Assembly (NCBI GenBank): GCA_963764165.1
Contig: CAVXRD010000001.1
Location: forward strand, 128,001-192,000
From: an uncultured Verrucomicrobiae bacterium
Lineage (GTDB): Bacteria > Verrucomicrobiota > Verrucomicrobiia > Limisphaerales > Palsa-1400
Length of the DNA stretch: 64,000 nt
Reading direction: 5' to 3'
The notes under the pieces were generated by a model, which made no database searches, was not told where the DNA came from, and saw only the letters and a list, made by a program, of their open reading frames with translations. Positions 29,647 to 64,000 of the stretch are shown piece by piece (the first letter of the stretch is position 1; each line of letters opens with the position of its first letter). The translations under genes and the position numbers were made by a program.

Positions 29647-30253
29647 GCTTATTCACGGTTTCGGCCTTCCACGCTTCTAGTTGAGCCAGTGCCGTTTCTG
29701 GATTTTGCAAAAGCTTGCCTTCGATCAATTGCGTTCTTTGTAGCAACTCGGCAATCCACGGAGTGTCTGATTGTTCAAATCTTTGCTTAAATTCAGCCAA
29801 TACTTCCAGACCAGCGGCATAATCACCGTTTCTAACCAACGTATAGGCGAAGGCCTCCAGAGTGTGTGGATTTACGCGCTGTCTGTCAAACTCGACAGAC
29901 GCCTTCAGATACCTTAGAACTCCTTCCCGTGTGAGAACATTATTGAGAAACGGGATTGCCTCACTACGAATGACCGCGTTTAAGTCTGCTAGTAAATTCG
30001 GATTATCCAGACGCCAATTCAGAGCGTTCCCAATGCGATTCCCGTAATTGAAGTAAATATAATCTGTTGGAACATAGAGGGGAAGGAAAAAAACATGCAA
30101 ATGAAAGTAATTGGCGTCGGAGGTGTTTTCAAAATATAATGTGCGCAGAAAATCGTCCGCAGGCGACATAAGGATCATTTTTTTCTCCGATATGAAGCCG
30201 GGTAAATCAGGCAACAGCGCTTTTGCAATTTTTTGAGCTTGTTTCGTTGTCAT
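29615..30253 (-). CDS. Putative immunity protein for the main RHS toxin
   Basis: ATGA overlap with the toxin stop, visibly lower GC, 212 aa. Family not recognised. Confidence 0.7.
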   Translation of the reverse strand: MTTKQAQKIAKALLPDLPGFISEKKMILMSPADDFLRTLYFENTSDANYFHLHVFFLPLYVPTDYIYFNYGNRIGNALNWRLDNPNLLADLNAVIRSEAIPFLNNVLTREGVLRYLKASVEFDRQRVNPHTLEAFAYTLVRNGDYAAGLEVLAEFKQRFEQSDTPWIAELLQRTQLIEGKLLQNPETALAQLEAWKAETVNKLGLEKYIRLQ

Positions 30254-39200: not shown

Positions 39201-42200
39201 TCGTCACAGCCGCAAACGACACGCCGTAGGCCCCTCCTCCAATAGAACTGCACCAAACATTCGATACGCTGGAAATCGTCGGCGGCAACGCGGCATTCGT
39301 CACTAACAGAACAACCGACGAGCTGGTGACGCTGGTGTAACCATTGGCAATGATCACCGAGTACGTTCCTGAATCGTTGGTGTGAACCTGGAGCAGCGTC
39401 AGCACATTGCTTTCGCCGCCGATGACGCTGCCCACGCCGCTGACCAGATTGCCATAGCCCGCCTTCGACCATTGATAGGTAACGCCGCAAGACCCATTTT
39501 GAGCCACAGCAAAGACTGCGTTGCCACCAGAGGCCATGGTCAGGTTGGTCGGCTGTCGGAAGATCGAAATCGTGGTTGGGTCTGAGATGGTGATGGCAGC
39601 GGTCAAACTCGTGACCGCGCCATAACTGTTCGTGACAATTACGGTGAAAGAATTCGTCCCAACGTTCGTGCAAGCCGCAGTGTAGTTGGATTGTGTGGCC
39701 CCCGCGATATTGGTGCCGCTCAATTGCCATTGATAAGCGAGTGGGAGTGAGCCGTCCACGGCGACAGATAGCGTCACCGGCGTTCCAAGACACGTTCCTT
39801 GGGTTTCCGGCTGCGACACAATGACCGGCGGCGTGCTGGCCGGAGCGATGATTTGGACAAGAACGTTCGTGCTGCTGTTTCCACCGCAACTGTCGGAGAC
39901 TTCCACCGAGTAAAGTCCGGTGTTCGCGTATTCGGCGTTTGATATCGTATAACTGCTGGCGGTTGCTCCGCTGATGGAGCTGCCGTTGAATGACCACTGA
40001 TATCCAAGCGTTCCCATCGCTCCCGGTGCCGCGGCGCTCAGCGTGACAGTGCTGCTCAAATTCGTCGTCACCGGTCCGGGACTGACATAAAGATTGGTCG
40101 GCAGGGCGCTGACGCTCACGACTGCGGAGGCCGAATCTGATCCATACGCATTTGTAACAATGACCTTGTAAGTCTGCGTTGCGCTCGTCGCTGAGACGGC
40201 GCCTATGCTCAGCGCCCAATTTGTTGAAACGGTGTTGGTTATTGGCGCGTCGTTCAGATACCACTGGTAATGGAATGTTGAAGCCCCGCCCGCCACCACT
40301 TGCAGCGTAAGAAATTCTCCTTCGCAGACAGTCCGGTTTGTCGGCGGAACGACAATGAAAGGTGACTGATTGTAGCAGTCAGGAACGGACAGTGTCGCAA
40401 TGGAGCTGGTCACGGTGCCATTTGTATTCGAGACAACTACCGAATAGTAGTTGGTGCTTGGGTAAAAGCTCGTTATCGATATCGAGTCATTGGTAGCGCT
40501 GGAAATCGCGAATCCGTTGGACATCCATTGAAACGAGATAGGCTTGCATCCTGATACATCCACCCAGAGATTAACCTCCTTGCCTGGACAAATCGTCTGG
40601 CTGACCGGTTGCGTTTTAATGACTGGCGACCACACGTTGGTTGGCCCAAGGTTGGTGTTGACATCGACTTGAATTGGGGATGAAATCTCAGCTCCCACAG
40701 CGTTCCAAATCACACAGTCGTAGGTACCTGCGTTCGTGACATTTGCTGTGGGAATTAAACAGCCCGCAATGTTCGCAAACGTGCATTTCTGCGCACACGG
40801 GTCGAATGAGGTTCTCGCCGGCCACCCGTTAATATAACCATTGGCGTTTGGAATTGGTTGACCGTTGAACCGCCATTGGTAGATGATCGGGAAGTAGTTT
40901 GGCGCCACTGGCAGGCCGAAAGGCTCAACCCACCGAAGAAAGGGGTAAAGCCAGAGATCGGGCGCATCTTGCCACCAGGTTGGATCGTAATTCCACCAAA
41001 GGCCCAGAGCATCCAAAGAGCGCGGGAGGACATCCAAGGTCAAAATCAAAGGAGAACCTTCATCGACATTTGTGGAACTGGGCTGCCACTTGACCAACGG
41101 CGGTGATTCCACCCAACTAACCCCGAATTCACCCTCGACATACTGCAATGGATAGTTGCAGAGCGCCCAAATTGTCGGAGGGTGAGGTATGATATAATCA
41201 GCCCCCGGACACCACTGAAGTGCCGATGGATCAATGATTGGATATGCGTAATAGGTATAGGCCTCGATCCCCGTCTGGACTGTCATTGGGGGGCTGATAT
41301 TGGTTCCGCAGGAGCCGATAATTTCCAGCTGAATTGTTCCCGCCTTGCCAATATACGCGCTCGGGTCAAGATATGAGTTAGTGGCTCCCGGGATGGGGCT
41401 GGCGTTGGCCAGCCATTGGTAGGTGACGTTGGGGGAATTGGTTGCCGCAACCATATCCCCTGGGATCAAAGCTGCTCCAACGTCAAGATCGTACGGCACG
41501 CCTTCCAGATAGTTAAATTGCCCTTCGACGGTTCCTGATCCGACCCAGTTTATGATGTTCCACGCATTTGGAAACTCGGCCAGTTCGGTATCTGGCATGC
41601 CATAGGGCAATGAATCTGAAGAGTTTGAGAGCACTCCCCAGTAAACAAATTGCGCGTCCTGCATGGCCATCAGGAGATTTGTCGTGCACGTGACGGTTTG
41701 GTAGCCATTGCTCGCCACCAAGGCGTAATTTCCCAGATCGGTTGACTGAAAATTGGAAATCGTGAGGGTGGCTGAATTTGCCCCGCTTATCTGCGTGTTG
41801 TCCGTCAGATTGACGCCGTTAAGCTGCCATTGAAGACTTAGCGGCTCAATCCCATTGACCGTAGATCTGAGAGTGACGGTGGCCCAGGTGCAGATGCTCG
41901 TTGGGGTTGCCGCGATTGTGGGCGTCAAGTCGATTGGACAATTATATGTCGTCAGCTCATCAAGCTGGCCGCGCATTTGGTTCGTGCCGGTGTGATCGCT
42001 GCCAATGCTGAATCCGTAGAGCTCGCGCTGCGCAATCGTGGGGTAATTGGTCACTCCCGGACCAATTTGCGCCACAGTTCCATCCAAAATTAAGGACGTT
42101 TGATCCGGGCCGTAATTGAGCGTCACTTGATGCCACGCATTCGACGTCCAATTTGTGATGGACACGGCGATGTTGGTCGTAGCAACCAAATTGGAACTGG

Positions 42201-45200
42201 TCGCGAAATAAAGCCATGAACCGGCCGAATCCACAAAAAGCGACCACCAGCCATTGGTTGAACTGGCATCGCCCAATTGCAGAAGTGTTCCGTGCGCTCC
42301 CCCGGGGCCGGAACCACCGTTCCAATCCGGCGCGAACCAGAAATTTACCGCCCCGTTAATGCAGTTGATGTTCAGGGTGCCGTTTGCTTGGGCGTATGGA
42401 TAACTCAGATTGGCGGAAATATTGGTATCGACCTTAAGAGCGTTAGTCCAAGGACTGGCAGGATTCTGGAGGCCGTAGCTCGCCAAAGGCTGCTGGCCGG
42501 GGCTTCCGACCCAAGGGCCGCCCGCATTTCCCTCGTTGAAGCTCCAATAGCCGAGGAGCAACGCATTTGTATTCGAACAGTTTTGCTCCACATCACCGTC
42601 TTCAAACACACTGATGATGTTGGTGATCGCCGATGTTCCCGATTGGCAGACGACGGTGAAGATTCCGGGCTGCGCGAGCGAAATATACGTGATATTGGTC
42701 AGCTGCCCGTCTAGCGACCACACCGCAGGCAAGCCGCTTGCGGGCAGATTCGGCGACGATTTGGCGACAATTTCCAAATTGCTGGAAGAAACGGGAATGG
42801 AATATGTCAGCAACGTAGCATTGCTGGAAGTGAACGGGTAGTTCGTCGGCGGCGCCAGCGAGGCAACTTCCACAACGGTGAGGCTGGCATTGGAGCTGGT
42901 GGCTGTTCCAGCCACATTTGTAACGCAGACCGAATAAGTTCCCGAGTTGGCCAGCTGCGCGTTTGCGACGGTGTAAGAACTCGAAGTGGCAGTGGATATA
43001 TTGGTTCCGTTGAGCATCCACTGATAGGATAGCGGAGTGCTCCCGGCTGATGGTGCGCTGAAGATGACAGTTGCCCCGAGGCCCACGACCTCGCTGGCGG
43101 GCTGCGCCACTAAATAGGGAGGACCGACCGGCAAACCGTTTGTTCCAAGAGCAGGATAGTGAAACCCGATGCTGACAGCGTTTGTTCCGTCAATCGTGTT
43201 GTTTGTCATCACGGTGAAATAAGACAACTCGGCCGCGGAAGCTGACTGGCTCCCGGCATTTATCAGTGTCAAATTTGTCGGTGAAAATATGCTTGGATAA
43301 TAGTAAGGTCCGAACGCTCCGCTCTGAAACGCAGGGCTGCTACTCAGAATGACAGCGTTGTTTTCAGGGGGCACAACACCGTAGTTTGTGGTGACGTAGG
43401 CGTTGTTGCTGCACACGTCCATCGGTTTCTGCGTGCCGCTGCCCTGGGCAAACGCTGTTTGGTCAAGCAGGTTGTCGCGCACCGAGAATATGCCGGAGTT
43501 ACGGTGGGTGATCGTCAGGGAACCATTCCAAAATAAATTATTCTCCGCCGTAATCGGGATATTCGAACCGAGGTCGCTTAACGTGACCGCCGCGCGTTGG
43601 AAAAGGCAGTTCGTCAACGCGGCAGGCATGAATTTTAGGTTCACAGTTGCGTTGAAAACCTGGCAGTTTTGGAGAACGACAGGCATCGCAGCATCTTCCG
43701 GATAGACTGCCCCGTCCAACGAGAGGGTCGAGAATTCCGTGAATGAAAATGCCGCCGAGGAGGAATCCGTCTGCACAGGCGTGATCAAATTTCCCTGCCA
43801 CGCAACGGTCGGCCAGCACCAGTTCGTATTGGATTGCTCCTGCACCGTGTTATATTTCACGAATAAAGCTGGGCTGGTCGCGTTGCCCTCGAAATTGAGA
43901 ATTCCGTTTGCATAAAGCCAAAACCCGTATTCAAGTCCGAACGCCGCAACGGCTGTCCCTGGGAGCACAGTTACGGTGGCGTTTGAGATCGCGGCGTTCA
44001 CCGCCCAATCCAAGGGCGGGTAATGATATCCAAGGTCAAGCTGGTTCCCGATGTTTCTCGGCACTACGGGGCCAAGGTTGGTGGTATTCGTGATCCAAGA
44101 TTGATTGAAAACCAACGGCGGATAGGTGGTCAAAGACTCCAAATCGGCAAGCACCGCAGCATTGATGTTTGTCGTACCCGCATTCTGATTTGTGCTGCCG
44201 TTCGCTAGATAATAGCCGCCAGCCCCTACGGTCTGATAAAAGCCCGTGTTAGTCGAATTCACGACGCTGCTGCTGAACGCGATTCCAGAAGTATTGGAAA
44301 CCCCTGTGAAGATGCAATTCGTTGCAAAACAGATATTGCTGGACCCGGTCATGAACGTCGAAATCTGATCCGCCGTCACGTTTACCGCATTGAGGGAAGC
44401 AAAGTTTGAGCCGACGCTATTGATGTAAAAGGCGGTGGTGCATTGGGCAAAAAGCACGTTATAGGCGTCGATAGGAAATCCCGACGCTGATCCGGTATAC
44501 GATAGATAAGGAACTAAAAACGCGCTCGAACAATCAAAAAATTGGCAGTCCCATATCTGGATGGGAGTCGAGCTGAACCACGAAATAACGCCCATAATGG
44601 CGTCGGCGGAGTACGAAAAGCGCAGATATTTGAAGACAAGGGCATTTGTCCCCGGATTATTGAAGCAGATGTATGCTGCCGCGCACGTATTTGGAGTCCC
44701 GGTGCTGCCGCTGATGGTCGATCCGGCAGTGTTGTCATTCATGGAAGTGAAGACCGCCGGGCGATACGCCGCTGTTTGGCATACGATGTTCGAAATCAAG
44801 ATTTCAGCGCCTGAATTATTCGTGTATTTGACTACGGCCCCGCCTTCCACTGTTAGCGTGCCCGAAACATTGACTGTACCCGTCACGAAATAGGTAGAAT
44901 CGCCCTGGAGCGTGAGATTGTTCGTGCTGCTCAGGAGATTATAGTCCACCACCAAGCCGGATTGATTTTTCTTCATTCCGGCGAACAGCATCGAATTTGT
45001 TTCGCTCTCAATCTGTCTAGACCATTTCTTGGGGACGTCCAAGAATGCAAGGCGGCGAACCGAACCACGCCCAGGATCAAGATTCGAGGCGTGAGGGAGA
45101 TTCTGAAGCTGATTGGAAATCGCCTCGAAAGGTATGGATTCAATCAAAAAGGTCCTGCCATTCACCTGAACCCATCTTTTTCTCACGCTTCCGGCGGGCA

Positions 45201-46005
45201 CCGGCGCATCCGCCCCATTGAGATAAAGCGCCTCTCCCACTCCCATCTTCATCTCACCGAAGTCCAGCACTTGGTCGTCGACTGTGCTGCCATTGGTGAT
45301 CGAGCTTGCCTGAGGTTCAGCGGAATTGAAAAACTCGGTATAGATCTGCAAAATTGACCCGGCGTCAGACAGGCCGTAACTCGCGGGACCGGCTGGCGCT
45401 TGCCGCAGCACAATGTCCTGGCTCAGTCCGGCCTTCGTGTAGGTGTACCAAATATCCGCATTCAGATTGCTGAAAGCTCCGGAGTATAACACCTGATTTG
45501 TCGCCACAATGGTGCCAGTGCAATTTTTCAGTGTTGCAATCATGGCATTGGATCCAGTCGAAGTATCGTACCAGGCAAGGCCCACCACCGAGCTTGAAAG
45601 CTGCTTTCCATCTGGCGTCGCAACCACAACCGCGCCGCCCGGCGCATTCGCGTTAAGAGCCCAGGTGACTTTATGCCGACCCTGGACCGCTTGCGCTCCG
45701 CCTGGAACGGCGTCAACTTCCTCAACGGAGTCAGCGTATTGCCCATTCGTGAGGTAGCAAAGTCCGGTTGCGATTTCCGTGTAGGATTGAATATTGGTTG
45801 TTACCGTTCCAATGGAATTTGTCTGCAACTGCAAGCGCTGCCAAAGCCGCGAATGAGGAGTCCGCCCGGTGATGGCGTAGTCGCTTGGAGTTGATGTGGC
45901 GGTCGAGTTTGTGGTTTGAACTTGAGCCAGGACGCGGCCTGGGCCAAGGACAACTCCAGTTAAAGCTATTAGGAACAATCGGCGGGCTAAAGGGGGAAAA
46001 TTCAT
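30250..46005 (-). CDS. Giant secreted RHS/YD polymorphic toxin (Ig, LamG, RCC1-like, FN3 and RHS regions) with PD-(D/E)XK-type nuclease tip
   Basis: Signal peptide MNFPPL...VLAQ. Ig repeats (LSYQW...SGTYSV), LamG (WHQVTL...LDELTTY), RCC1-like (ALxSxGTVWxWG), FN3 and YD repeats, then RYYAPNLGRF and DPSGH. Tip GTKAH...EVSY...RLDVV...DLKTG. Confidence 0.9.
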   Translation of the reverse strand: MNFPPLARRLFLIALTGVVLGPGRVLAQVQTTNSTATSTPSDYAITGRTPHSRLWQRLQLQTNSIGTVTTNIQSYTEIATGLCYLTNGQYADSVEEVDAVPGGAQAVQGRHKVTWALNANAPGGAVVVATPDGKQLSSSVVGLAWYDTSTGSNAMIATLKNCTGTIVATNQVLYSGAFSNLNADIWYTYTKAGLSQDIVLRQAPAGPASYGLSDAGSILQIYTEFFNSAEPQASSITNGSTVDDQVLDFGEMKMGVGEALYLNGADAPVPAGSVRKRWVQVNGRTFLIESIPFEAISNQLQNLPHASNLDPGRGSVRRLAFLDVPKKWSRQIESETNSMLFAGMKKNQSGLVVDYNLLSSTNNLTLQGDSTYFVTGTVNVSGTLTVEGGAVVKYTNNSGAEILISNIVCQTAAYRPAVFTSMNDNTAGSTISGSTGTPNTCAAAYICFNNPGTNALVFKYLRFSYSADAIMGVISWFSSTPIQIWDCQFFDCSSAFLVPYLSYTGSASGFPIDAYNVLFAQCTTAFYINSVGSNFASLNAVNVTADQISTFMTGSSNICFATNCIFTGVSNTSGIAFSSSVVNSTNTGFYQTVGAGGYYLANGSTNQNAGTTNINAAVLADLESLTTYPPLVFNQSWITNTTNLGPVVPRNIGNQLDLGYHYPPLDWAVNAAISNATVTVLPGTAVAAFGLEYGFWLYANGILNFEGNATSPALFVKYNTVQEQSNTNWCWPTVAWQGNLITPVQTDSSSAAFSFTEFSTLSLDGAVYPEDAAMPVVLQNCQVFNATVNLKFMPAALTNCLFQRAAVTLSDLGSNIPITAENNLFWNGSLTITHRNSGIFSVRDNLLDQTAFAQGSGTQKPMDVCSNNAYVTTNYGVVPPENNAVILSSSPAFQSGAFGPYYYPSIFSPTNLTLINAGSQSASAAELSYFTVMTNNTIDGTNAVSIGFHYPALGTNGLPVGPPYLVAQPASEVVGLGATVIFSAPSAGSTPLSYQWMLNGTNISTATSSSYTVANAQLANSGTYSVCVTNVAGTATSSNASLTVVEVASLAPPTNYPFTSSNATLLTYSIPVSSSNLEIVAKSSPNLPASGLPAVWSLDGQLTNITYISLAQPGIFTVVCQSGTSAITNIISVFEDGDVEQNCSNTNALLLGYWSFNEGNAGGPWVGSPGQQPLASYGLQNPASPWTNALKVDTNISANLSYPYAQANGTLNINCINGAVNFWFAPDWNGGSGPGGAHGTLLQLGDASSTNGWWSLFVDSAGSWLYFATSSNLVATTNIAVSITNWTSNAWHQVTLNYGPDQTSLILDGTVAQIGPGVTNYPTIAQRELYGFSIGSDHTGTNQMRGQLDELTTYNCPIDLTPTIAATPTSICTWATVTLRSTVNGIEPLSLQWQLNGVNLTDNTQISGANSATLTISNFQSTDLGNYALVASNGYQTVTCTTNLLMAMQDAQFVYWGVLSNSSDSLPYGMPDTELAEFPNAWNIINWVGSGTVEGQFNYLEGVPYDLDVGAALIPGDMVAATNSPNVTYQWLANASPIPGATNSYLDPSAYIGKAGTIQLEIIGSCGTNISPPMTVQTGIEAYTYYAYPIIDPSALQWCPGADYIIPHPPTIWALCNYPLQYVEGEFGVSWVESPPLVKWQPSSTNVDEGSPLILTLDVLPRSLDALGLWWNYDPTWWQDAPDLWLYPFLRWVEPFGLPVAPNYFPIIYQWRFNGQPIPNANGYINGWPARTSFDPCAQKCTFANIAGCLIPTANVTNAGTYDCVIWNAVGAEISSPIQVDVNTNLGPTNVWSPVIKTQPVSQTICPGKEVNLWVDVSGCKPISFQWMSNGFAISSATNDSISITSFYPSTNYYSVVVSNTNGTVTSSIATLSVPDCYNQSPFIVVPPTNRTVCEGEFLTLQVVAGGASTFHYQWYLNDAPITNTVSTNWALSIGAVSATSATQTYKVIVTNAYGSDSASAVVSVSALPTNLYVSPGPVTTNLSSTVTLSAAAPGAMGTLGYQWSFNGSSISGATASSYTISNAEYANTGLYSVEVSDSCGGNSSTNVLVQIIAPASTPPVIVSQPETQGTCLGTPVTLSVAVDGSLPLAYQWQLSGTNIAGATQSNYTAACTNVGTNSFTVIVTNSYGAVTSLTAAITISDPTTISIFRQPTNLTMASGGNAVFAVAQNGSCGVTYQWSKAGYGNLVSGVGSVIGGESNVLTLLQVHTNDSGTYSVIIANGYTSVTSSSVVLLVTNAALPPTISSVSNVWCSSIGGGAYGVSFAAVTNKSDARDPNGWPFYFEIETVTNGTLVINGTPFAPPTASKPNCTFNSQSTMAWTPGISHQGIAVPAFFVRVSDGAMLSTNQVPVPIIPLPPTVMLGWGNNKWGSLADGNFASLPIPTPDLPSKAWPWTNPLSVSTPVQSIGLTNLKAFSHDPFDGGAAVNEAGNLLMWGSMTAAYGIFGEGVGTNELLPYFTTPILVEMSNDTGVLAPWTNTVDVSLGYLAIYAIRAVGTNRTIWSWGDLQFGEIGRELDEWEGNNTFQGVGTFKANPITGITNAQGEQISVAEVASDKAMSALALGVDGSVWCWGEMQSLDTDLDDYNVVNAGFFTLFGGPDEVPTRVTDFDTGSPVIQVSASASHYMALRSNGTVWEFGFVPRLALLNGCIFGPPLDCGFTNVPQQAPGLPTNVVSIGAGGLYSLALMSDGTVWQWGLAAQGYDASSGVYTNPVQVYGLSNIIKIDVAWDSCVALDSSGNVWEWGDLEFDQNGFDYNYPDYQSAQPILNPNIEFATNVWIGWQSVFACGSVVTDRPRQLVATPLSTEIQLNWASFPGAAYYNVYRSLTNGGTYGVVGTSTSNSFLDVGLSNGTTYYYTVSAMYAGSETPQSDQASATPYPPPTNVIWSSSYLYGSTNYGIDSQCQDIHLVWYAVDGATVYQVCRSTSLSGPYSIINETTVESNLDISAEGGVNYYYYVVAGNGAGFGPPSITNGPIALDPSTCVPAPIILTNWVPQNGEIELTWQFDATSGLDGFDIETYVCRQDDQNKQAPTASSFPWPVFYSASSLSNISTDTYTYNMTNDVGLIPEYIYWFRVCAVSNGEPGIYSTIVGPISECADLSNIGAPLKVVAVAGNEQVYLEWQAVSNATSYNVGFNTNGSTNFAFVATNLNDTRFWHLGLSNDTTYNYQVTPEVLYEVTNANTNWSYFDYVLGKPAFASATPSNTLGLSTNISTNFTLAATGFDSLVYLHWESLGNPPQYQCFVERKFQTNTDASYQVLSGTGYGLAYYDYDVVNGVTYAYRVTAFDSNFNCFRAVATNVTPSATGILTAIGTPGNGYVSLQWNGIGAASYFIKSGPSAGGPYTALGNTYGTSFICSPVQNGVTNYYVVEAATPFGTTVDSAPIAIVASATLASMPPQNFTAACGSSNILLSWSPVSGAASYRLSWSLPPDYLIYSGPGTAFSFPVPSNTVDNTVFWFDLVDVNQQGQISGVSSASVLYSNIFSAPDANPIVLTVGTYVVPATNGSITNVGPTNLTLTASVQTTNGAGAMVTFYDGPNAIGSAPGPVAQMTWFNVPGGTHAVTAQAVTLPVSPTVALLGDYQNGATFTSATCTMTMLVQPPLTMYQTSATDLQLPAPGLPLSISRSYTSQITNSPGNLGIGWTPSWSVASVQVANGNLANGWIEAGFDYSGVAYAAETTSHLVTLTLPGGASAYFSPTLAPADDPQGSGLSLSFQPCIPNEGTLTCTEAMQGTASLGYSDDLNTWGHNTFFLTGDPDNQTTQFSPDTFVYTTAANTTYQFIQPSGVWLLKQITDANGNSLSYGYDNLNRLTAMQHSNGRVIQFSYTTITNTSPPETWINVSDSVDASAGMHSGAYATNWVVRYLVQGANPTNGLLMEVDKVTNYATGGFERTTYGYDSNNDVNTNRLTQVFDGRGILVTSNLYSAAGDGSLSNQFDAFLHTSIYTYNPTTTVQTVSRMVSGSNQTVTVNYAPSGAVGSVLQPISDLGYTGTTYTYDNNGNVTAQTDSYGNSQKTQYDSLNRPISQSDALGNSTSVQLNVMGQPTLSTDANGNGTTNVYDPSSGNLLQSQDPTGSQSSMTYAPAIMGINGVAAGGLVASSTQQSPGVSYPVTTSYAYYPGSGQPQPNSSGEVASMTQQWPSGSGMPVSTTSYTYDANGNRTSETTTATVNGVPNTPIVTQYQYDAENRLVATIDAIGRISTTIYDHAGHPYITTDVDNRSTTNTYDAAGNLIETAYPDGTVSRMTYDELNHVLYTQDRSVPGTGGATTNAASLNVYDGAGRVVCVERLSGVSLTRQTNTALITRSGADTIYGMTNTSAGTLVSFTRTVYDLAGRVRYSMAANGNVTQYSYDAAGRRTNVLVYTNYTVNLSSINQTIAPTGGTNSTQYFYDPNGNQIAMIDANGHETDYLYDTANRLVLTTYPVLADGTRHQTAIAYDGAGNKIGTTDEAGVKTAYTYDYRGLLTSVILDTASSGQLTYQYTYDERGNQLSQSDANGNLTQYQYDALGRRTMRILPDGSAEITAYADVPLTNGSSIKVQQTSVTDFRGKTIVTTEDVVGRIATKVLPPINLGETTTTETYAYLPGGQLSHVWITNSGSLLREEDYVYDNVGRLIVKTCPEGALQYTYTPNNQVQTMQAYSPGVVAISGGPPDVSVGYGYDFLGRLSSVSNYLATNAATYRYDNVGNLAGFAYPNGVQHSCSYNAQNRLTWLALTNGSGVLVQSFAYGLSMVGSRTNVVESGGHGSLGQVAWGYDGSGLARVSRLTSEAFYGTSGSFIGAVTNTYDPAGNRLTRRTWAGSPVAGQTNAYDHRDLIDSDNIPNNANTNYDANGNTLALPSSASGNYYDAQNRLITDQGDDVLEYDHSGNRVNESYGINLYLVDEMSPSGYPQVVAQYWPEAMSATVSYVWGLSLISQNWSNSPVRYTGFDGQGSVRLLLDGSGSVQDTYDYDGYGNLLYQTGSDQNFYLYDCEFYDPYLEMYSLGPRYYAPNLGRFITSDSYDGNQEDPLSLHKYLYCEADPVNMRDPSGHDGDLGGLMMSTTIAAGLDGMYNGAVLAAGNALQATLIGVQNRLTENAILGGYLLDVANGLALGYGIGATVDVAGDLLFGANVSGEAVSLEVNGANTVQGAQEFALTESTAANLMGAAGRAAKTVEEEFGLTEGMPGFGTKAHTAFAKEVKAMGLNSEVSYLNGKEVPYGTPGSVRLDVVKGDKLQPQAVWDLKTGSAKLKAARIQQIRKHLPEGYQNIPIEEIRP

Positions 46006-46754
46006 GGAGTGTTGCCTGCCGTGTCTTGCGGGGGAGCGCGGCAATGAAATTGGTTGTTGAATATTGAAATTGCGAGCCTGACAAACCCTTGCTACATCGC
46101 GAGCGATAGCAGACCCAATAACATTTCTCGGGAAGAGAGTTTCTACAGATCAATTGAGAACGTCAATCTATTTTTGAAGATAATTCAAAGAAAATGGATC
46201 CAATTGTCACTTACTGTCGACTTCTATCGATGCGGAGAACAGTAGATAGCCAAATTGTAGCTTATCGTCTGCTATTCGCCGGGCCTCGATTCCTCAAAAA
46301 TAGATTGACGCCCCAATCGCCAGGTGTGATGAAAAAAGGTGAAGCTCTCAATAATATAATATTGAGGCGGCGGCGCAGCACCGCCCTACCGCAATTTGGC
46401 AGGGCGGACCTGTGCGTCCGCCCAAATATTCGTGTGGAATATCACGGTCAATCGCATCTAATCGCCCTTGCGTGCGATTTTTTGCTGGCAGTCAACAAAT
46501 TGTTTTGATAGAAAAGCAAGCCACGCCGGGAAACGACGCAGGAACGGGTACTTCTTTGGCGCGATGAAAGTGATCTGATGCAATTTCGAAACGAGCATCT
46601 TGGGGACGAAAAAGTGAAAGGCCGCAAGCTGTGACGGGGCGGAGCTTTGCCGAATTTTTTCCTTGGCGCCACGGGCCAGGAATTACTTCGTCCGTTTGGC
46701 CCAAGCCAAATCGCGCTCCAGCGTCAACAACGTGCAAGTGTTGTGCAGTTTAAG

Positions 46755-47015
46755 CTAACCTATTCGGATTTGCCGCTCGTATTCTTCATGAGGCCCGATC
46801 CAAAACCATTTTGCCGCGCCACCTTCTACGATGGCAAGGGCTCGATAATTGTCTGTAACGCGCGCAGACCAGAATCCTCCAACTTTTTTAAAATGAAGCG
46901 AAGGATGCTGCGGGTTTTGAAGCCACAACCTGAAGGCCCTTCGCGCCGCACGTTGGATTTCTGGCGGCAGTTGCGCGAATCGGTTACGAAAGCTTTTTGT
47001 GGTCGAGGAACGCAT
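46755..47015 (-). CDS. RelE/ParE-superfamily toxin
   Basis: 86 aa: LPPEIQRAARRAFRLWLQNPQHPSLHFKKV..WSARV..NYRAL...WFWIGPHEEY. Confidence 0.82.
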   Translation of the reverse strand: MRSSTTKSFRNRFAQLPPEIQRAARRAFRLWLQNPQHPSLHFKKVGGFWSARVTDNYRALAIVEGGAAKWFWIGPHEEYERQIRIG

Positions 47016-47214
47016 CAAGCGGTGCCTCCGACTCGCCCGGCTCCTCTTTCTGAAGACGCTCGTAAAACTCGCGCAGCCTGCCAGACCCCGCATCGTGCTC
47101 GATTTGGCGATCCCATTCGTCCGCATGGCGCTCGCGCAGATGCCGAACGAGTTCGAAAAACTGCTCGCGCGGCAACCCTTCGATTTGCCTCTCTATTTCC
47201 TGCAACGTCGTCAC
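46984..47214 (-). CDS. Putative cognate antitoxin
   Basis: Small acidic protein (EIERQIEGLP...WDRQIEHDAGSGRL) upstream of and overlapping the toxin. GTG start. Confidence 0.75.
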   Translation of the reverse strand: MTTLQEIERQIEGLPREQFFELVRHLRERHADEWDRQIEHDAGSGRLREFYERLQKEEPGESEAPLDAFLDHKKLS

Positions 47215-47255
47215 ACATACAGATTATCTTAACCAAGCTTGGTCATCAAGCCCAA

Positions 47256-47360
47256 GCTTCAACGGAGCCGCGCTCGCTTGAGCGCGGAATGTATTGGTTT
47301 TCACTCGTTTTAACATGCAACGAGCCAGCTTCAACGGGACCGCCTTCGACGGACGATTTG
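47256..47360 (-). CRISPR. Single-spacer mini-array (crRNA-like regulatory RNA), inverted relative to the main array
   Basis: Minus strand: degenerate repeat ending CCGTTGAAGC (47360-47328), 36-nt spacer (47327-47292), then a near-canonical repeat CATTCCGCGCTCAAGCGAGCGCGGCTCCGTTGAAGC (47291-47256, 33/36 identity). Confidence 0.88.
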
Positions 47361-47370
47361 TTGGAGACGA

Positions 47371-47399
47371 TTGACAGTTCAAGAATTATTGCTTAACAT
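47371..47399 (+). promoter_or_regulatory. sigma70-type promoter of the cas operon
   Basis: TTGACA-N17-TAACAT, 80 bp upstream of the csb1 ATG. Confidence 0.8.
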
Positions 47400-47406
47400 G
47401 CAACTA

Positions 47407-47435
47407 GACATAACACGAATATCTTAAATTGTCAA
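47407..47435 (-). promoter_or_regulatory. Opposing promoter facing the mini-array and TA genes
   Basis: Minus strand TTGACA-N17-TATGTC with an extended TGn. The -10 box is imperfect. Confidence 0.55.
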
Positions 47436-47479
47436 ACTCAGCGGAACAATCGCCGCAGAAACCAGAAACAGAACATATT

Positions 47480-48691
47480 ATGAATGAAGAACCAAAACCA
47501 AAAGTCCTCAGTCTGGACCTCTTAAAATCAGCCGTGAGCGGAAGTGCCGCCGCATTTCGTTCCCGCACCCGTCTACAACCTGCTGGGGGTGAAGGAGACA
47601 AAGTATTTCCGCCAACTTATGCCGGAGCGGTCTACGCCAAGGAGGAGCGGCAAATCAACGGCGCAAAGGTTCCATGCGTGCTGCTTGATTCTGTCCAAGC
47701 GCAAGCGAACCGCTTGGAAGAGGCGCTGCAACGGGCATTGGATGCGGGGACGCTCAAGAACATCCCGGTGTTGAATGTGGATTTTACCGGCCTTGGTCTC
47801 TTGGATGAAATTGGACGAGTGAGCACCCTTGAAGCGCCACATCGAATCGCTGATGCGATCCTTCGTGACAGCCTTTATGAGGGGCAGCCGTTTCGGAAGA
47901 GCACACTCGGGAAGTCATTAGATCAAGCTAGCCTGCAAAACGCTACTCCGCTTTATAAACTCTGCCCGACGGCGTTGATTTTCGGCATATGGGATTCGAC
48001 AGGTCCAAAAGGTGGACTCGGCGCGAAATTTCAGCGGGCTCTCGTATCGGAAATCATCGGCGTGAATGCCGAGATCGGTGTAAAAACAAGTAGCCGAATT
48101 GATCCGCTTGGCATGCGCGCGGCGGCAATGGTGGTCAAGAAGCCAGACGGCAGCTACGAACTTGCGAGCGACAAGGCAAAGGATGCTGTTTCACCGTCAG
48201 GAGTAAACCACGGCAACATTCCACCCGACATCACTAAGCCAGGAGGGGCCGGTGGAGCAACCTTGGACTACGCCGAACAAACGGTTGTCCTGTCCCTGCC
48301 CGCGCTGCGTAAGTTGCGTTTTCCTGTAGATGGTACAACAATCCCCGAGCGGGACGCGGCGGGGCGGACCGTACTTGCAGCATTGGCTCTGACGGCGGCC
48401 ACGCTGGCGGCGGAGAGCGGATTCGATCTCCGTTCCCGATGTCTGCTCTGGCCGACTGAGGCGATGAAGTGGGAATTGCTGGAGACGCCAGGGAAGACTC
48501 CCACCGAGTTCACCGTCACAGCAAAAGAAGCTATCAAGCTTTTGGAGGAAGCGGTTGTGGCGGCGGAAAAGCTCGGCTTGGTATGGCAAAAAGAGCCGGT
48601 GAAGTTAATTCCCTCTCCGAATCTGGTTGCCCTGCTCAAGCGGTCGCAGGACATTTCTGCCAAGTCGCCAGCGGGCGCATCGGCAGAATAA
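47480..48691 (+). CDS. csb1: Type I-G Cas7 (Csb1)
   Basis: LQPAGGEGDKVFPPTY, LLDSVQAQANRLE, APHRIADAILRDS, FGIWDSTG, SSRIDPLG, DLRSRCLL. Confidence 0.93.
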   Translation: MNEEPKPKVLSLDLLKSAVSGSAAAFRSRTRLQPAGGEGDKVFPPTYAGAVYAKEERQINGAKVPCVLLDSVQAQANRLEEALQRALDAGTLKNIPVLNVDFTGLGLLDEIGRVSTLEAPHRIADAILRDSLYEGQPFRKSTLGKSLDQASLQNATPLYKLCPTALIFGIWDSTGPKGGLGAKFQRALVSEIIGVNAEIGVKTSSRIDPLGMRAAAMVVKKPDGSYELASDKAKDAVSPSGVNHGNIPPDITKPGGAGGATLDYAEQTVVLSLPALRKLRFPVDGTTIPERDAAGRTVLAALALTAATLAAESGFDLRSRCLLWPTEAMKWELLETPGKTPTEFTVTAKEAIKLLEEAVVAAEKLGLVWQKEPVKLIPSPNLVALLKRSQDISAKSPAGASAE

Positions 48692-48706: not shown

Positions 48707-50374
48707 ATGTTTACCCTCGGAATTGATTTCATCACCGGTGTCGCGGTGATGACGGATGCGGCCAGTCGGGAAAAGGCCGAGTGGCCACCGCATCCAGCCC
48801 GCGTTTTCATGGCACTGGTCGCGGCGCACCACGAATCAAAGCCACTGCCAGAAGATGGCCACGATGCAGAAGCGGCATGGGTTCACGAGCGCGCGGCTCT
48901 GGAATGGCTGGAACGCCAAGGCGCTCCGCAAATGAGTTGGCCGGAAGCTTCACCGCGCGACGTGGTAAAAGTCTATGTTCCGGTGAACGACGCAGGAGTT
49001 CCGCAAAATGCCGCCCGAGTGAAAGAATCTGAAATGCGAGCCGCGCTCGGCGTAATGCCCGATCAACGTAGTCGCCAGGAGCGGACATTTCCCGCGGTGC
49101 ATATCAACGGCGAAGGTCCGAATCGACATGTCTATTTTTATTGGCAAAACGCAACGCCTCCGACGGAGATTGTAGCTGCGTTCACCGGACTCACGCGGAA
49201 GGTGACCCGCATCGGACATTCTTCGTCACTCGCGCTAGTTTGGGTTTCCGAGATTGATGACGCACCTTCGCCTTCTTACAAACCAAATGCGAACGCGACT
49301 AAGACACGCCAAGGCGTGCCGCTTCGGATTCCTGTGCCGGGCTTCTTGGCAGAGCTCGACCGATGCTTCAACGCGGGTGAGATCGACGACTTCTTCGACC
49401 TTTCGGCAGCAATTTTAACTAAAACCGGCGCCGCAAAAGATCAAGCGAAAACAGCGTTTGAAGACCGTTTCGCGACGGCTTGGAGTAGGAACGTCAGCGC
49501 TCCGGTGCGACTGCGTCCTTCGCCGGGACGGACGGCGCATTACTCACGCGTGGACGAAGGGAAACCTCTCGTTGTTCTGTCGAGTTTCGATTCCGAACTC
49601 CTGGTGCTGACGAAGCAGGAAGGACCGGTGCTAGGCTTGGAATCCACTGCGGCCCTCACGGCTGCGTTGCGGGGATATTTATTGCAAGCGGGCGAAGACA
49701 AGCCAGAGTGGTTCACGGGCCACAGCGCGCCGGGGTTGCCCTCGACTGGCGGGCACATAGCGCTTCTCCCGCTCGCTTTTGTGGGAGCGGAGCATGCCGA
49801 TGGTCACATCTTGGGATTGGCCGTAGCCTTCCCTCGCGCGATTCCCGCGGCGGATCGGGCGGCTTGTTTGCGCGGGCGGCTGTTTGGCTCATCCGGTGAT
49901 GACCTCGAACCGGAACTTCAGATGGGTAACCTCGGGACGTGGACGCTGCGACGCGAAGAACGCAGTCTGCCGCCGCTGGCTCTGCGGTCGGCGACGTGGT
50001 GCGAGCCGTCTTCCGTCTGGGCGAGTGTCACGCCCGTTGTTCTCGACCGGCACCCGAAGCACGATCAGCAAACCGAGCGAGCGCAGTGGCGCGACGAAGT
50101 CGTCGCGAGCGTCGCCCAAAGTTGCGTGCGGCAGGGTCTGCCGAAACCGGAATTGATTGATGTGGACAAAACCTCGTGGCACCGGGGCGCGCCCCGCTCC
50201 CGACCTGGCCCCAGCGGGATGCCGTGGCTGCCCGGCAAGAAAGGCACCCCCCCCCGCCAGCAGGTGCATGTGCTCATCCAGTTTCCCTGCGAAGTGCAAG
50301 GTCCGCTCCTTCTCGGCGCGGGACGCTTCCGTGGCTACGGCCTCTGCAAACCGCTCGGCTCCTTGTTCAAATGA
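48707..50374 (+). CDS. csb2: Type I-G Cas5-Cas6 fusion (Csb2)
   Basis: EWPPHPARVFMALVA, YVPVND, IGHSSS, WASVTP, and the Gly-rich Cas6 loop GPLLLGAGRFRGYGLC. Confidence 0.93.
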   Translation: MFTLGIDFITGVAVMTDAASREKAEWPPHPARVFMALVAAHHESKPLPEDGHDAEAAWVHERAALEWLERQGAPQMSWPEASPRDVVKVYVPVNDAGVPQNAARVKESEMRAALGVMPDQRSRQERTFPAVHINGEGPNRHVYFYWQNATPPTEIVAAFTGLTRKVTRIGHSSSLALVWVSEIDDAPSPSYKPNANATKTRQGVPLRIPVPGFLAELDRCFNAGEIDDFFDLSAAILTKTGAAKDQAKTAFEDRFATAWSRNVSAPVRLRPSPGRTAHYSRVDEGKPLVVLSSFDSELLVLTKQEGPVLGLESTAALTAALRGYLLQAGEDKPEWFTGHSAPGLPSTGGHIALLPLAFVGAEHADGHILGLAVAFPRAIPAADRAACLRGRLFGSSGDDLEPELQMGNLGTWTLRREERSLPPLALRSATWCEPSSVWASVTPVVLDRHPKHDQQTERAQWRDEVVASVAQSCVRQGLPKPELIDVDKTSWHRGAPRSRPGPSGMPWLPGKKGTPPRQQVHVLIQFPCEVQGPLLLGAGRFRGYGLCKPLGSLFK

Positions 50375-53300
50375 ATCCGCCATTCCTGACCGCCGACGAT
50401 TTCTCAGCGTTCTTCCGCGAGCTTTGGGGATCGGACTGCGACCCTTTCCCGTGGCAGCGTGAATTTGCCCGCCGCCTCTGTGCAGGGAAAGTGCCCGACT
50501 ACGTGGCTGTTCCAACGGGGAGTGGCAAAACGGCGTGCCTCGACGCCGCCGTCTTCGCCCTCGCGACGCAAGCCGCTTTGCCAATGGCTGAACGCACGCA
50601 AGGCCGGCGCATTTTCTTCATCGTCAATCGCCGAGTCATCGTGGACGAGGCTTACGACCGCGCAGGAAAGCTCTGCAAAAAACTTGGGGACGCCGCTTCC
50701 GAATCCGTGGCTGGGCGCGTGGCCGCAGCGTTGTGCAAGCTTTCCGGGGAAGTCGAGGCGGTCCCGCTAGCGCGTGCGCAGCTTCGTGGGGGAATTTATC
50801 GCGATCGGAGTTGGGCCAACTCGCTCCTCCAGCCGATGATTATTTGCAGCACAGTAGATCAGGCAGGGTCGCGACTGCTCTTTCGCGGCTACGGTGTCAG
50901 TCCCCAAGCCCGGCCAATCCACGCAGCTCTCGTCGCGCAGGACAGCTTGCTGATCATTGATGAAGCGCACATCAGCCGCCCCTTCATCCAGACGTTGGAA
51001 TGGGTGAAGCGTTATCGTCTTCACCAACCAGCGGGGTGTGAGACTGTGCAGCTTCCTTTTCAGCTTATTCAGATGACGGCGACCCCTCCGGCTGACACGC
51101 GTAACGACCAAAAAATCACGCTTACGCCCCAGGATCATGAGCATCCTGTTTTGAAACCGCGCCTGCGGGCTGTGAAGCCTGCGCACCTCATTGTAGAGCC
51201 GAAGGCGAAAGGAAAAGCTCGCGAGGAACAAATGGCGAAGCGGCTTGTGGAGGAAACCAAAAAGATTCTCGCCGAGGATCACCCTCGATCCATCGCCATC
51301 ATGGTCAATCGTGTGGCGACCGCGCGTTCCGTCACGGCAAAATTGGAAAACGAACACAAGGGACGCGTGACGCTTTTGATCGGACGACTGCGCCCACTGG
51401 ATCGGGAAGCAACAACGAAAGACATTCAGGAACGCCTCAAAACTGGAGCCACCGCCAGAACCACCGAGGACGGCCCGAGCATTGTGGTCTCGACGCAATG
51501 TCTGGAGGTCGGAGCCGATTTGGATTTCGACACTCTTGTGACCGAAGCCGCCAGCCTTGATGCGCTCCGCCAGCGCTTCGGGCGTCTTAATCGGGGCGGG
51601 CGCGACATCACGGCCCGCGCGGTAATTGTCCTGCCGGGTGATCAGGATTTGCCCGTGGACAAACTTAACGAGGCCGCACCGTGCGATCCGATCTACGCCA
51701 ACGCCATCCCTCGAACGTGGCGTTGGCTGAGTGGTCTGGCGCAAGATGGCGACGGCGTAGTCGATTTTGGCATCAACGCGATGGGTGCTGCCGTCGATGC
51801 TCTCCGCGCGTCCGGCAGCGAAGAAGCACTCGTGGCGATGTGCTCACCGACCAGCGATGCTCCGGTTCTCCTCCCGGCTTATCTGGACTGTTGGGTGCAA
51901 ACGAATCCCGCACCCGCCGCTGATCCCGACGTCGCGCTATTCCTCCACGGCGCGCAGCGCGAGATGGCAGACGTGCAAGTTTGTTGGCGCGGCGACCTGC
52001 CCGAGGCGGAGAACGAAGACGAGTGGGCGGACATCCTCAGCCTTTGCCCACCGACCACGGCGGAGTGTCTGCCGGTGCCGCTGCCTATCTTCCGGGATTG
52101 GCTAGGCTCGCGTGGCAAGTTCGAGGACTCCTCTGGTGATGTCGCCGAAATCCAGGAACTGCTCGCCAAGAAAAAGGAGGAGGAAGAGCGCGGCATTCCG
52201 GCCCTCGTCTGGCGCGGTCCTGATGACTGCTTCTTCGCACATCGTGCTGCCGGTCTTCGCCCCGGCGACACCATCATTCTCCGCGTTCAGGGTGGCGGAT
52301 GGCAGGCACTCGGACACCTGCCCGGTGTTCCTGCCGATCCGCAGACCACGCCTCAAGGATCACTCCCTCCTGAGGAAGTTTGTCGTGTCGATTTTGCCGA
52401 AAGAGCCACCGCGTCGACCCGGCGACGCGCGATTCTTCGTATCCACCCGGCTCTGTGGCAGACGTCGGAAGCCGGACCCGCAGCGGCAGCCCTGAGGGAC
52501 ATGGCGCTCGATCCCGAAAAAGATTGGCGCATCCCAGAAATCAAAGATCTGCTATCCCGGCTTTTGACCGACGAAAACCCCGGCCGGTCTCTCACCGCCG
52601 AGCAACGGGAAGTGATCCAGCATCTTGCCAAGAAAAGCGTTCGCGTCTACGCAGAGCCATATCCCGGCAACAAAGGGTTCGCCCTGGTTGCTCGCGACCT
52701 ATTGCCGCACGGTGATGCCGACGAAACCAGTGACACCGACGCCGACGCGCTCCTCGAAGCCTCCCAACCCCAGGAACTGTGCGACCACACAAAGGATGTT
52801 CTCGACTGCCTCGAAAGCTCCCTCGCCTTATTGCCACTTGCGGCGTGGCGCGAAGCGCTGATCGCTGCTGCTGCGGTGCATGATTGGGGGAAAGTCGATC
52901 CGCGTTTCCAAGCAATGCTGCGCGGCACCACTCCTTTCGCCGCTATGGCCAGTGGGATCTTCCTCGCGAAGTCCGGTTCCATCGCTTCGTCCGCCGCAGC
53001 CCGCCGCGCGGCGAGGCAGCGGGCCGCACTGCCGGACGGCTTCCGCCACGAGATGTTGTCCCTCCTCATGGCGGAAAACTCCATCGGAACAACCGCGCTG
53101 CCCGCGCCCCCCATGCTCCACGCGCTCACCCTGCATCTCATCGTTACCCACCACGGCTACGCGCGCCCCTTTGCCTCGCTGGTGGACGACGACACTCCGC
53201 CCGAAGTGAGCCTGCCCATGAAAGGCGAGACCATCGCCGTCACCGGAGCCGAGCGCATCGAACATCCCGCTCACGCGCTGGACTCCGGGCTGGCTGAACG

Positions 53301-53415
53301 CTTCTGGCAAATGAACCGACACTACGGCTGGTGGGGCGTCGCCCTCCTCGAAGCAGTTCTCCGTCTCGCCGATCAATCCGCCAGTGCCAACCCGCGAGCA
53401 ATCACGAAACCATGA
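50371..53415 (+). CDS. cas3: Type I-G Cas3, helicase with C-terminal HD nuclease
   Basis: PFPWQ, PTGSGKT, DEAH, EVGADLD, QRFGRLNR. C-terminal HDWGK, FRHE, THHG and LRLAD. Confidence 0.95.
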   Translation: MNPPFLTADDFSAFFRELWGSDCDPFPWQREFARRLCAGKVPDYVAVPTGSGKTACLDAAVFALATQAALPMAERTQGRRIFFIVNRRVIVDEAYDRAGKLCKKLGDAASESVAGRVAAALCKLSGEVEAVPLARAQLRGGIYRDRSWANSLLQPMIICSTVDQAGSRLLFRGYGVSPQARPIHAALVAQDSLLIIDEAHISRPFIQTLEWVKRYRLHQPAGCETVQLPFQLIQMTATPPADTRNDQKITLTPQDHEHPVLKPRLRAVKPAHLIVEPKAKGKAREEQMAKRLVEETKKILAEDHPRSIAIMVNRVATARSVTAKLENEHKGRVTLLIGRLRPLDREATTKDIQERLKTGATARTTEDGPSIVVSTQCLEVGADLDFDTLVTEAASLDALRQRFGRLNRGGRDITARAVIVLPGDQDLPVDKLNEAAPCDPIYANAIPRTWRWLSGLAQDGDGVVDFGINAMGAAVDALRASGSEEALVAMCSPTSDAPVLLPAYLDCWVQTNPAPAADPDVALFLHGAQREMADVQVCWRGDLPEAENEDEWADILSLCPPTTAECLPVPLPIFRDWLGSRGKFEDSSGDVAEIQELLAKKKEEEERGIPALVWRGPDDCFFAHRAAGLRPGDTIILRVQGGGWQALGHLPGVPADPQTTPQGSLPPEEVCRVDFAERATASTRRRAILRIHPALWQTSEAGPAAAALRDMALDPEKDWRIPEIKDLLSRLLTDENPGRSLTAEQREVIQHLAKKSVRVYAEPYPGNKGFALVARDLLPHGDADETSDTDADALLEASQPQELCDHTKDVLDCLESSLALLPLAAWREALIAAAAVHDWGKVDPRFQAMLRGTTPFAAMASGIFLAKSGSIASSAAARRAARQRAALPDGFRHEMLSLLMAENSIGTTALPAPPMLHALTLHLIVTHHGYARPFASLVDDDTPPEVSLPMKGETIAVTGAERIEHPAHALDSGLAERFWQMNRHYGWWGVALLEAVLRLADQSASANPRAITKP

Positions 53416-54341
53416 TGACTTCATCCAACGAATTAACCCTCCCGGCATTGCAAGGTTCGAGCTTGCTCGGATTCTTGGCCTCACTGGGTGCTTTCCGCAC
53501 GATCGCCATGCTGCCGGAAGCGAGCGATGTCCGGATGCGATGGGTTGCCGGAGGAGGCTCGTATTGCCCCGTGCTGCGGTTGCCCTCGCCAGCAACGCCC
53601 GAGGTGATCGTCGAAAAACTGCATGCCGCATTGCGCGGTCTCGCTGGCCACTACGTCATCACCGTGGACAAGGACTTGAAGATTCCTCGCGGCGTCTTTC
53701 GCAAACTCGCCGCCAATGCAGCCGAAGACTTTCTAACCCACACCGACCCGATGGCCGCGAGCATGGTCGCGGCATTTGGCTGCGACGCAGTGGGAAACGA
53801 AGACGGCACAATCGAAGACACCGCGTTTCGGACGATGAGTGGCGCAGGCCATCAACACTTCCTGGAATTCATGAACGTGTTGGCGAAGGAAACGACGGTG
53901 GAGCAACTGCGTGAAGCGCTCTTCGGCCCGTGGCGCTACCGAGACTCTAGCCCTACCATGCGGTGGGATACGGAGGATGACCGCCGCTACGCCCTGCGAT
54001 GGGATGAGCCATCGAAAGACCCCGTCCGCACCGTGCGCGGGGCAAACCTCTTAGCCATCGCCGCGCTACCTTTTTTTCCGGTTGTCCCCACTTCCAGCAG
54101 CACGGTGGCAACTACTGGCTTCAACGGTCGAGGAAGCCGTGATACTTTCGTCACATGGCCAGTCTGGACGGGCTGGCTAGCGCTGGATGCTGTTCGCTCG
54201 CTCTTAGGGTTGAAAGAACTTCAGGAGCCGAACGAAACTTCTATAAAGTCTCTTGAAATGTATGGCGTAGTTGCAACCTATCGAAGCCAACGAATTACTC
54301 TTGGAAAATATAGGAATTTTACCCCGGCGACCTCCATGTGA
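53412..54341 (+). CDS. Type I-G short large subunit Cas8g (Csb3/Cas8u2-like)
   Basis: LGFLASLG, MRWD..DDRRYALR..EP, GANLLAIAALPFFP, WPVW. Coupled to the cas3 stop. Confidence 0.8.
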   Translation: MMTSSNELTLPALQGSSLLGFLASLGAFRTIAMLPEASDVRMRWVAGGGSYCPVLRLPSPATPEVIVEKLHAALRGLAGHYVITVDKDLKIPRGVFRKLAANAAEDFLTHTDPMAASMVAAFGCDAVGNEDGTIEDTAFRTMSGAGHQHFLEFMNVLAKETTVEQLREALFGPWRYRDSSPTMRWDTEDDRRYALRWDEPSKDPVRTVRGANLLAIAALPFFPVVPTSSSTVATTGFNGRGSRDTFVTWPVWTGWLALDAVRSLLGLKELQEPNETSIKSLEMYGVVATYRSQRITLGKYRNFTPATSM

Positions 54342-57461: not shown

Positions 57462-57752
57462 ATGCGCACGACCTACCTGGTTTGCTACGATGTCGCCGAT
57501 GCCAAACGACTGCGGCACGCGTTCAAGACATGCCGCAACTTCGGCGACCACTTGCAATTCTCGGTGTTCGAGTGCGATCTCAATCCGTCGGAGAAGATTG
57601 AAATGGAAACGCAACTCGCGCAAATCATCAATCATGATGAAGACCAGGTGCTCTTCATCTCGCTTGGGCCGTCTGAAGGCCGGGGAGACCGCGTGATTAC
57701 GGCGTTAGGCTTGCCCTACACGAAATTGGACGCGCCGTGTTATGTGGTCTGA
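57462..57752 (+). CDS. cas2: Cas2
   Basis: YLVCYDVADAKRL...HLQFSVFEC. Confidence 0.96.
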   Translation: MRTTYLVCYDVADAKRLRHAFKTCRNFGDHLQFSVFECDLNPSEKIEMETQLAQIINHDEDQVLFISLGPSEGRGDRVITALGLPYTKLDAPCYVV

Positions 57753-63900: not shown

Positions 63901-64000
63901 TCACGCGAGCGTGGCTCCGTTGAAGCCATGTGAACACCTAGCGCATGGATTGTTTCCAGGGCCATTCCACGCTCACGCGAGCGTGGCTCCGTTGAAGCAA
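57957..64000 (+). CRISPR. Type I-G CRISPR array, 84 repeats and 83 full spacers by hand count, continues past the window
   Basis: 36-bp repeat CATTCCACGCTCACGCGAGCGTGGCTCCGTTGAAGC with an 8-bp stem and 3' GTTGAAGC handle, no variants noticed. Spacers are about 35-38 bp. Confidence 0.99.

Follow-up and report, generated by a model that had tools for sequence, protein, structure and literature searches.

The region upstream of csb1 in the analysed window, by which we mean the whole 64,000-nt stretch of DNA, carries a degenerate two-repeat CRISPR mini-array on the minus strand, whose spacer matches a site at the predicted cas promoter. We consider it probable that this element is a CreR-type guide that steers the type I-G Cascade-Cas3 complex to two overlapping predicted promoters and thereby represses both the cas operon and its own transcript without cutting. 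The match is real, and the element is very likely regulatory, judged from the sequence comparisons described below. The principle is already known from CreA/CreR, and examples for I-U have been noted bioinformatically, and within the accessible literature we found no experimental test for I-G and no report of the split PIN/UPF0175 layout that occurs in relatives.

The cas locus itself is a complete type I-G system on the plus strand, comprising all six cas genes, which appear intact, and a CRISPR array (Table 1). Spacer 32 of this array matches a prophage region of the same genome (G000:C4:327232-327268, locus L175; a Mu-like region with Gam-like, methyltransferase and terminase genes) at 36/37 positions, with a mismatch at position 4 and a TTT PAM. 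This case is consistent with TTN and with the direction in which the array is read, and the native PAM, as far as one protospacer can tell, did not depart from TTN, a departure that would have spoken against the original prediction. A self-targeting spacer with a seed mismatch suggests escape or a prophage anti-CRISPR. Beside the locus lies a minus-strand ORF of 5264 aa (30250-46044), in which Ig-like/fibronectin-like repeats and a YD/RHS-type C-terminal region were recognised by eye.

Table 1. Features of the type I-G locus and its upstream region, in window coordinates; minus-strand elements of the mini-array, target and opposing promoter are given in reading direction.
Feature	Position	Strand	Remarks
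ParE-like toxin gene	46755-47015	minus	PF24732
Antitoxin-like ORF, 76 aa	46984-47214	minus	no Pfam match
Weak candidate promoter TTGATG-N17-TAATCT	47221-47249	minus	6 nt before GTG start
R2, second repeat	47291-47256	minus	33/36 vs main-array repeat
Guide spacer, 36 nt	47327-47292	minus	positions 1-18 match promoter target
R1, degenerate first repeat	47363-47328	minus	21/36 vs main-array repeat
Decayed 5' end of DUF3368/COG2405 PIN gene	47350-47380	minus	~9 codons, start codon lost
Predicted cas promoter TTGACA-N17-TAACAT	47371-47399	plus	-10 within target
Target (protospacer)	47410-47393	minus	16/18 match to guide
PAM TTA	47413-47411	minus	5' of target
Predicted opposing promoter TTGACA-N17-TATGTC	47435-47407	minus	extended TG; -10 overlaps PAM and seed
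csb1/cas7g	47480-48691	plus	
csb2/cas56g	48707-50374	plus	
cas3g (helicase, C-terminal HD)	50371-53415	plus	
cas8g	53412-54341	plus	
cas4-cas1 fusion	55182-57458	plus	start approximate
cas2	57462-57752	plus	
Main CRISPR array	57957-64000	plus	92 identical 36-nt repeats, runs beyond window end

The inverted mini-array that had been proposed for this region was borne out, with an R1 of 21/36 identity, a 36-nt spacer and an R2 of 33/36. It shows both repeat features of CreR, as R1 keeps the 5' handle and R2 the hairpin, with one spacer in between. In R1 the 8-nt handle GTTGAAGC is intact (47335-47328, minus) and preceded by the 4-nt linker and a weak 5-bp hairpin in the canonical place, and its 5' part is formed by the PIN-gene remnant. 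R2 has retained the 8-bp hairpin with one A-U pair changed to G-C and one change in the loop, and outside the main array it is the sole repeat copy at up to 10 mismatches. The length of the guide falls within the range of the main-array spacers (35-38 nt), and its first 19 nt are common to the relatives L085 and L107. That the guide is a copy of a main-array spacer was rejected, the best of 91 spacers agreeing at only 16/36 positions, as was the sequence 3' of R2 as a second guide, for which no target scored above the null. A search of 46300-47700 against Rfam returned two matches only, both at chance level. Folding predictions were less favourable: R1 folds weakly (z -0.87), its predicted best fold sequesters the handle instead of forming the canonical hairpin, and within the spacer, pairing is predicted between the guide seed (approximately positions 3-9) and positions 19-25. 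A similar stretch complementary to the seed is kept in the guides of L085 and L107.

The description of the guide-target match in the original prediction proved exact: 16/18 positions pair, with mismatches at positions 3 and 6, a 5'-TTA and no match continuing after position 18 (2/18 over positions 19-36). The PAM-proximal partial complementarity and the cognate PAM expected of CreR are thus both present, the latter as TTA here and as TTN across the family. The guide 18-mer has its best match in the 7.0-Mb genome at this target, at a distance of 83 nt. At up to 4 mismatches a single other TTN-flanked site was found, and two sites with 3 mismatches lack TTN. This second match (C1:1330924; TTA PAM, 8-nt seed, 4/18 mismatches) lies inside a coding gene and was rejected as chance.

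That the target covers the -10 box of a TTGACA-N17-TAACAT promoter upstream of csb1 likewise holds, as a statement about a predicted promoter. The candidate matches the consensus at 10/12 positions and is the sole plus-strand promoter-like site in 46300-47700, where the scan returned 2 sites over both strands compared with 0.7 ± 0.8 in shuffled sequences. The original prediction had overlooked a second, opposing promoter, as well as the PIN toxin-gene remnant and the antitoxin-like/ParE-like pair behind the mini-array. The boxes of this opposing promoter (TTGACA at 47435-47430 and TATGTC at 47412-47407) were missed by the stricter scan, the -10 lacking the final T, with a non-consensus last base; counterparts occur in L085, L107 and L083. 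It is predicted to transcribe the mini-array itself. The target as a whole is near-identical to the targets of L083 and L085.

To place the element in its family, 140 csb1 loci were gathered, 121 of which cover the start of csb1 together with 250 nt or more of upstream sequence; after removal of the other 19 and of 14 near-duplicates, 107 distinct loci remained. The closest named relatives belong to the Verrucomicrobiota. A strict two-repeat mini-array was found at 20/107 loci, giving 21 guides, all opposite to the csb1 strand. Without any PAM filter, the best local match was flanked by TTN for 18 of the 21 guides, compared with 6.6% of 1849 cross-locus best hits, and when all 18 positions were weighted equally TTN was still found at 16/21 best matches. 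Empirical p-values, calculated against the 88-89 other loci and overstated by the relatedness of the loci, fell below 0.03 for 14/21 guides. The p of 0.034 for the window guide is explained by its recurrence in L085 and L107; its score of 13 compares with a null maximum of 9 over the first 50 loci. No convincing target was found for 3/21 guides, namely those of L024 and L082 and one guide of L066. At L066 three repeats and two spacers lie upstream of csb1, and of these spacers the second alone matches a local target next to TTN.

Among the 16 guides with TTN under equal weighting, positions 6, 12 and 18 match in 14/48 cases compared with 218/240 elsewhere, and positions 1, 2, 4, 5, 7 and 13 match in 16/16. 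Position 3 is matched in 11/16 and mismatched in 5/16 of these guides, which eases the concern that the position-3 mismatch could abolish binding. The 21 guides fall into 18 mostly unrelated sequence clusters, each matching its own csb1 upstream region, and guide and target therefore co-vary. The search upstream of csb1 homologues suggested in the original prediction has thus yielded co-varying guide-target pairs, with a TTN PAM and the six-base periodicity of Cas7. When the 87 remaining loci were scanned under relaxed conditions, for the handle only and without a separate null, 18 matches were obtained, 18/18 with TTN, so that strict and relaxed searches together place a TTN-flanked guide at 36/107 loci. 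Overlap of the targets with promoter-like sites was modestly enriched (12/18 compared with a shuffle mean of 7.7 and maximum of 13), and sites on both strands overlapped the target in 5/18 cases (shuffle mean 1.3, maximum 7). Directly upstream of csb1 in L017, L018, L023, L025, L026 and L045, all without a mini-array, truncated 5' cas3-like helicase fragments were noted by eye.

A DUF3368/COG2405 PIN gene separates target and mini-array at 12/20 strict loci, and a UPF0175 gene follows R2 there, giving the order PIN-[mini-array]-UPF0175. In these relatives the PIN toxin-like gene stands directly under the targeted promoter, the arrangement expected of CreTA and CrePA. COG2405 (DUF3368) PIN and UPF0175 proteins have been described as a putative type II toxin-antitoxin pair (PMC5499597), and the same two families flank the mini-array here; in the family the order is toxin first and split, in contrast to the antitoxin-first order of the two unlinked copies of this genome. 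A promoter-like site directly 3' of R2 passes the scan in 3/21 cases. An alignment of 9 PIN proteins showed two invariant Glu residues and a conserved third acidic site. The first catalytic Asp is replaced by Asn in 4/9, including the closest ones from L085 and L107, whereas L022, L027 and L058 retain it, and toxicity is putative. In a quick, unrooted Csb1 tree of 87 rows the PIN-bearing loci are scattered, and the window falls into a supported clade with the PIN-bearing L065, L083, L085 and L088. In L019, L038, L069, L075, L077, L082, L114 and L125 the guide is followed, on its own strand, by a ~164-aa ORF that has no Pfam match and looks kinase-like by eye, a possible alternative cargo.

The window locus has no toxin gene directly under the targeted promoter, only the ~9 decayed PIN codons, which lie between target and R1 and run into R1. 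This remnant is identical to the start of the PIN gene in L085/L107 at 23/30 positions, with two synonymous third-position differences, and the target-guide interval is ~510 bp shorter than in these two loci. The PIN toxin-like gene thus appears to have been deleted from the window genome; the direction of loss follows from the remnant, as the Csb1 tree alone does not give it. The UPF0175 gene is absent as well, and the ParE-like pair occupies its place. The ancestral element likely silenced, in addition, a PIN toxin-like gene that stood between promoter and mini-array and had its UPF0175 antitoxin on the far side of the mini-array; the window element resembles an orphaned CreA that has become a CreR. 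Judged by gene order it is not a member of the CreTA/CrePA type in this genome, and many relatives have that layout. An RNA toxin may be encoded in the 60-nt gap of the window locus.

The guide-target distance of only 83 nt and the shortness of an 18-nt match might suggest chance, or promoter DNA duplicated locally without any role for Cascade, but we regard this as very improbable. Duplication would neither spare positions 6, 12 and 18 (14/48 compared with 218/240) nor impose TTN, and it would not begin exactly at the handle in 36/107 loci; at the level of the family it is refuted. The pairing pattern is instead the one expected if selection acted on Cas7-bound pairing. Somewhat better placed, though still improbable, is the view of a vestigial element, in which loss of the PIN gene by deletion also damaged R1 so that the mature guide is no longer made. 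The deletion junction within the 5' half of R1, the weak R1 hairpin and the predicted self-pairing of the seed fit this view; a weak R1 is, however, the norm in the family (hairpin of at most 6 bp in 15/21 guides) and has been described for CreR (10.1101/2023.03.10.532045), and no damage is seen in handle, linker, R2 hairpin or target, the target being near-identical to those of L083 and L085.

Control of a toxin could also be the main function. The guide would then silence the opposing promoter, loss of Cascade would cause read-through that raises expression of the antitoxin/ParE-like operon, as in a CreA-like guard, and repression of cas would be secondary. PAM and seed do lie on the opposing -10, and in L081 this gene pair follows another guide. 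Genes of toxin-antitoxin families occur upstream of csb1 in 16/19 mini-array loci compared with 6/66 others (those with at least 1200 nt upstream), a comparison biased by queries drawn from mini-array loci. We nevertheless consider toxin control as the main function unlikely. The pair forms a complete antitoxin-first operon with its own candidate promoter conserved with L081, where the -10 block is identical, even if this promoter is weak and under the scan threshold. Similar antitoxin/ParE-like pairs exist elsewhere in the genome, where homologues of the 76-aa antitoxin-like ORF precede ParE-like genes, and the pair is also present at L108 and L120, neither of which has a strict mini-array, although L108 has a relaxed guide. 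A perfect 12-bp palindrome (47232-47243) within the candidate promoter of the pair is a possible operator and is not conserved in L081.

Returning to the preferred reading of a CreR-type guide acting on both promoters, the opposing promoter would start a minus-strand RNA near 47400, and Csb2 would cut R1 and R2 to release a 72-nt RNA (47335-47264). The R-loop formed by the loaded complex would extend over ~18 bp and stop there, too short to license degradation, and the bound complex would block RNA polymerase in both directions, resulting in negative feedback on the cas genes and the guide. Competition from the 91 array crRNAs or an anti-CRISPR would relieve this block; such relief has been shown for CreR in I-B, I-E and V-A (10.1101/2023.03.10.532045). 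For characterised I-G, Csb2 is reported to bind the hairpin and not the handle, to cut 4 nt below the hairpin and to leave an 8-nt handle, and the complex to use a TTN PAM with every sixth base flipped out (10.1101/2022.08.08.503147), in agreement with the PAM and the unpaired sixth base assumed in the original prediction. In the same study stable binding to linear dsDNA required Cas3, which nicked the displaced strand of a full target near R-loop position 8. Csb1, Csb2 and Cas8g alone, as in the reporter suggested with the original prediction, may consequently not suffice for repression. The idea of a regulatory guide gains support from the family, where unrelated guides find their match upstream of csb1 at their own locus, with TTN and periodicity, but autorepression of cas would be only part of the circuit, since the opposing promoter is overlapped too and in relatives is predicted to drive the PIN toxin-like gene and the guide. 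The weak points of the scheme, as we see them, are the sparing of an 18-bp partial target by Cas3, the self-pairing of the seed and the 5' cut in R1, which is doubtful because Csb2 binds the hairpin and that of R1 is poor.

Compared with known systems, the element resembles CreR (10.1101/2023.03.10.532045) in its degenerate two-repeat mini-array with R1 handle and R2 3' hairpin, in the partial PAM-flanked match at a cas promoter, here a predicted one, and in controlling no toxin. Unlike there, where the experiments presented cover I-B, I-E and V-A, the system is I-G, in which stable DNA binding needs Cas3, and the guide is apparently transcribed from one of the promoters that it targets. The same paper lists creA-like elements for I-U found by manual search (Fig. 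S7) and describes Haloarcula hispanica CreTA (I-B), a comparable case in which one guide, through a single target, represses the divergent promoters of toxin and cas8 on either side of it. The toxin of that system is an RNA, in contrast to the PIN protein gene and retained protein antitoxin of the present family, where the mini-array separates toxin and antitoxin genes; the window locus has apparently lost its toxin gene. CrePA (I-F, 10.1101/2024.01.05.574328) is similar in placing a protein toxin under a crRNA-like guide, as a proposed anti-anti-CRISPR guard, but its CreP is a phage-derived division inhibitor. Mini-arrays that target the promoters of cas or of toxin-antitoxin cargo were described by Shmakov et al. 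(PMC10120712), who report loss of cargo with the mini-array kept for I-D and name toxin-antitoxin enrichment for I-B, I-E, I-F1 and I-D. I-G mini-arrays appear in Table 1 only of that paper, at 4% of 235 loci, compared with a TTN-flanked guide at 36/107 loci of the csb1 set here. The main texts of the CrePA, CRISIS, Cracr and Racr papers mention neither I-G nor I-U, that of CrePA also no VapC, and the accessible text of an I-G engineering paper (PMC10482374) contains no repression experiment. In the main texts of openly available articles we found no report of guide-mediated repression in I-G and no DUF3368/UPF0175 pair split by a mini-array.

A distinct type of unit was noticed on viral contigs, which carry 'inside-out' I-G repeat units (e.g. 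L176, L188, L204, L205, L210, L227, L229 and L231; also L142, L147, L157, L168 and L170) with the order right arm, 4 nt, handle, spacer-sized loop and left arm. Handle and spacer are enclosed by a stem of 10-30 bp, formed by the two arms and differing in sequence from element to element; a normal hairpin and a second handle are absent. Such units were found at 23/41 distinct single-repeat loci, where the search pattern itself forced 4 bp (14/66 loci were arrays), and stems of at least 8 bp without the forced partner occurred in 12/31 cases compared with 5/300 control windows. They are possibly a circularly permuted crRNA mimic or an I-G RNA anti-CRISPR. No targets were found for them, nor a counterpart in the accessible text of the Racr paper or in the literature search. 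When scored against the upstream regions of the 107 loci, viral repeat-like units did not reach the level of host guides (best 10; one 13 in another scan).

If the preferred reading holds, RNA-guided autoregulation of Cas would extend to type I-G, whose nuclease belongs to the DNA-binding complex, and how a Cas3-loaded complex binds an 18-bp target uncut would become a testable question. The 36 natural guide-target pairs provide rules for such binding (TTN; strict pairing at positions 1, 2, 4, 5 and 7, tolerance at position 3) and a basis from which I-G CRISPRi could be developed. More tentatively, and as a possibility that we do not yet favour, verrucomicrobial I-G loci may have captured a type II toxin-antitoxin pair that was split by the mini-array, such that a Cas3-containing complex would silence a bidirectional promoter, with cas on one side and PIN toxin and guide on the other, the antitoxin would be expressed separately, and the present genome would record the transition from CreA to CreR by deletion of the toxin gene. 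An anti-CRISPR would then at once release new Cascade, more guide and excess toxin. If true, CRISPR control would have rewired a protein toxin-antitoxin pair in this family, and the window locus would show a guard element becoming a plain autoregulator.
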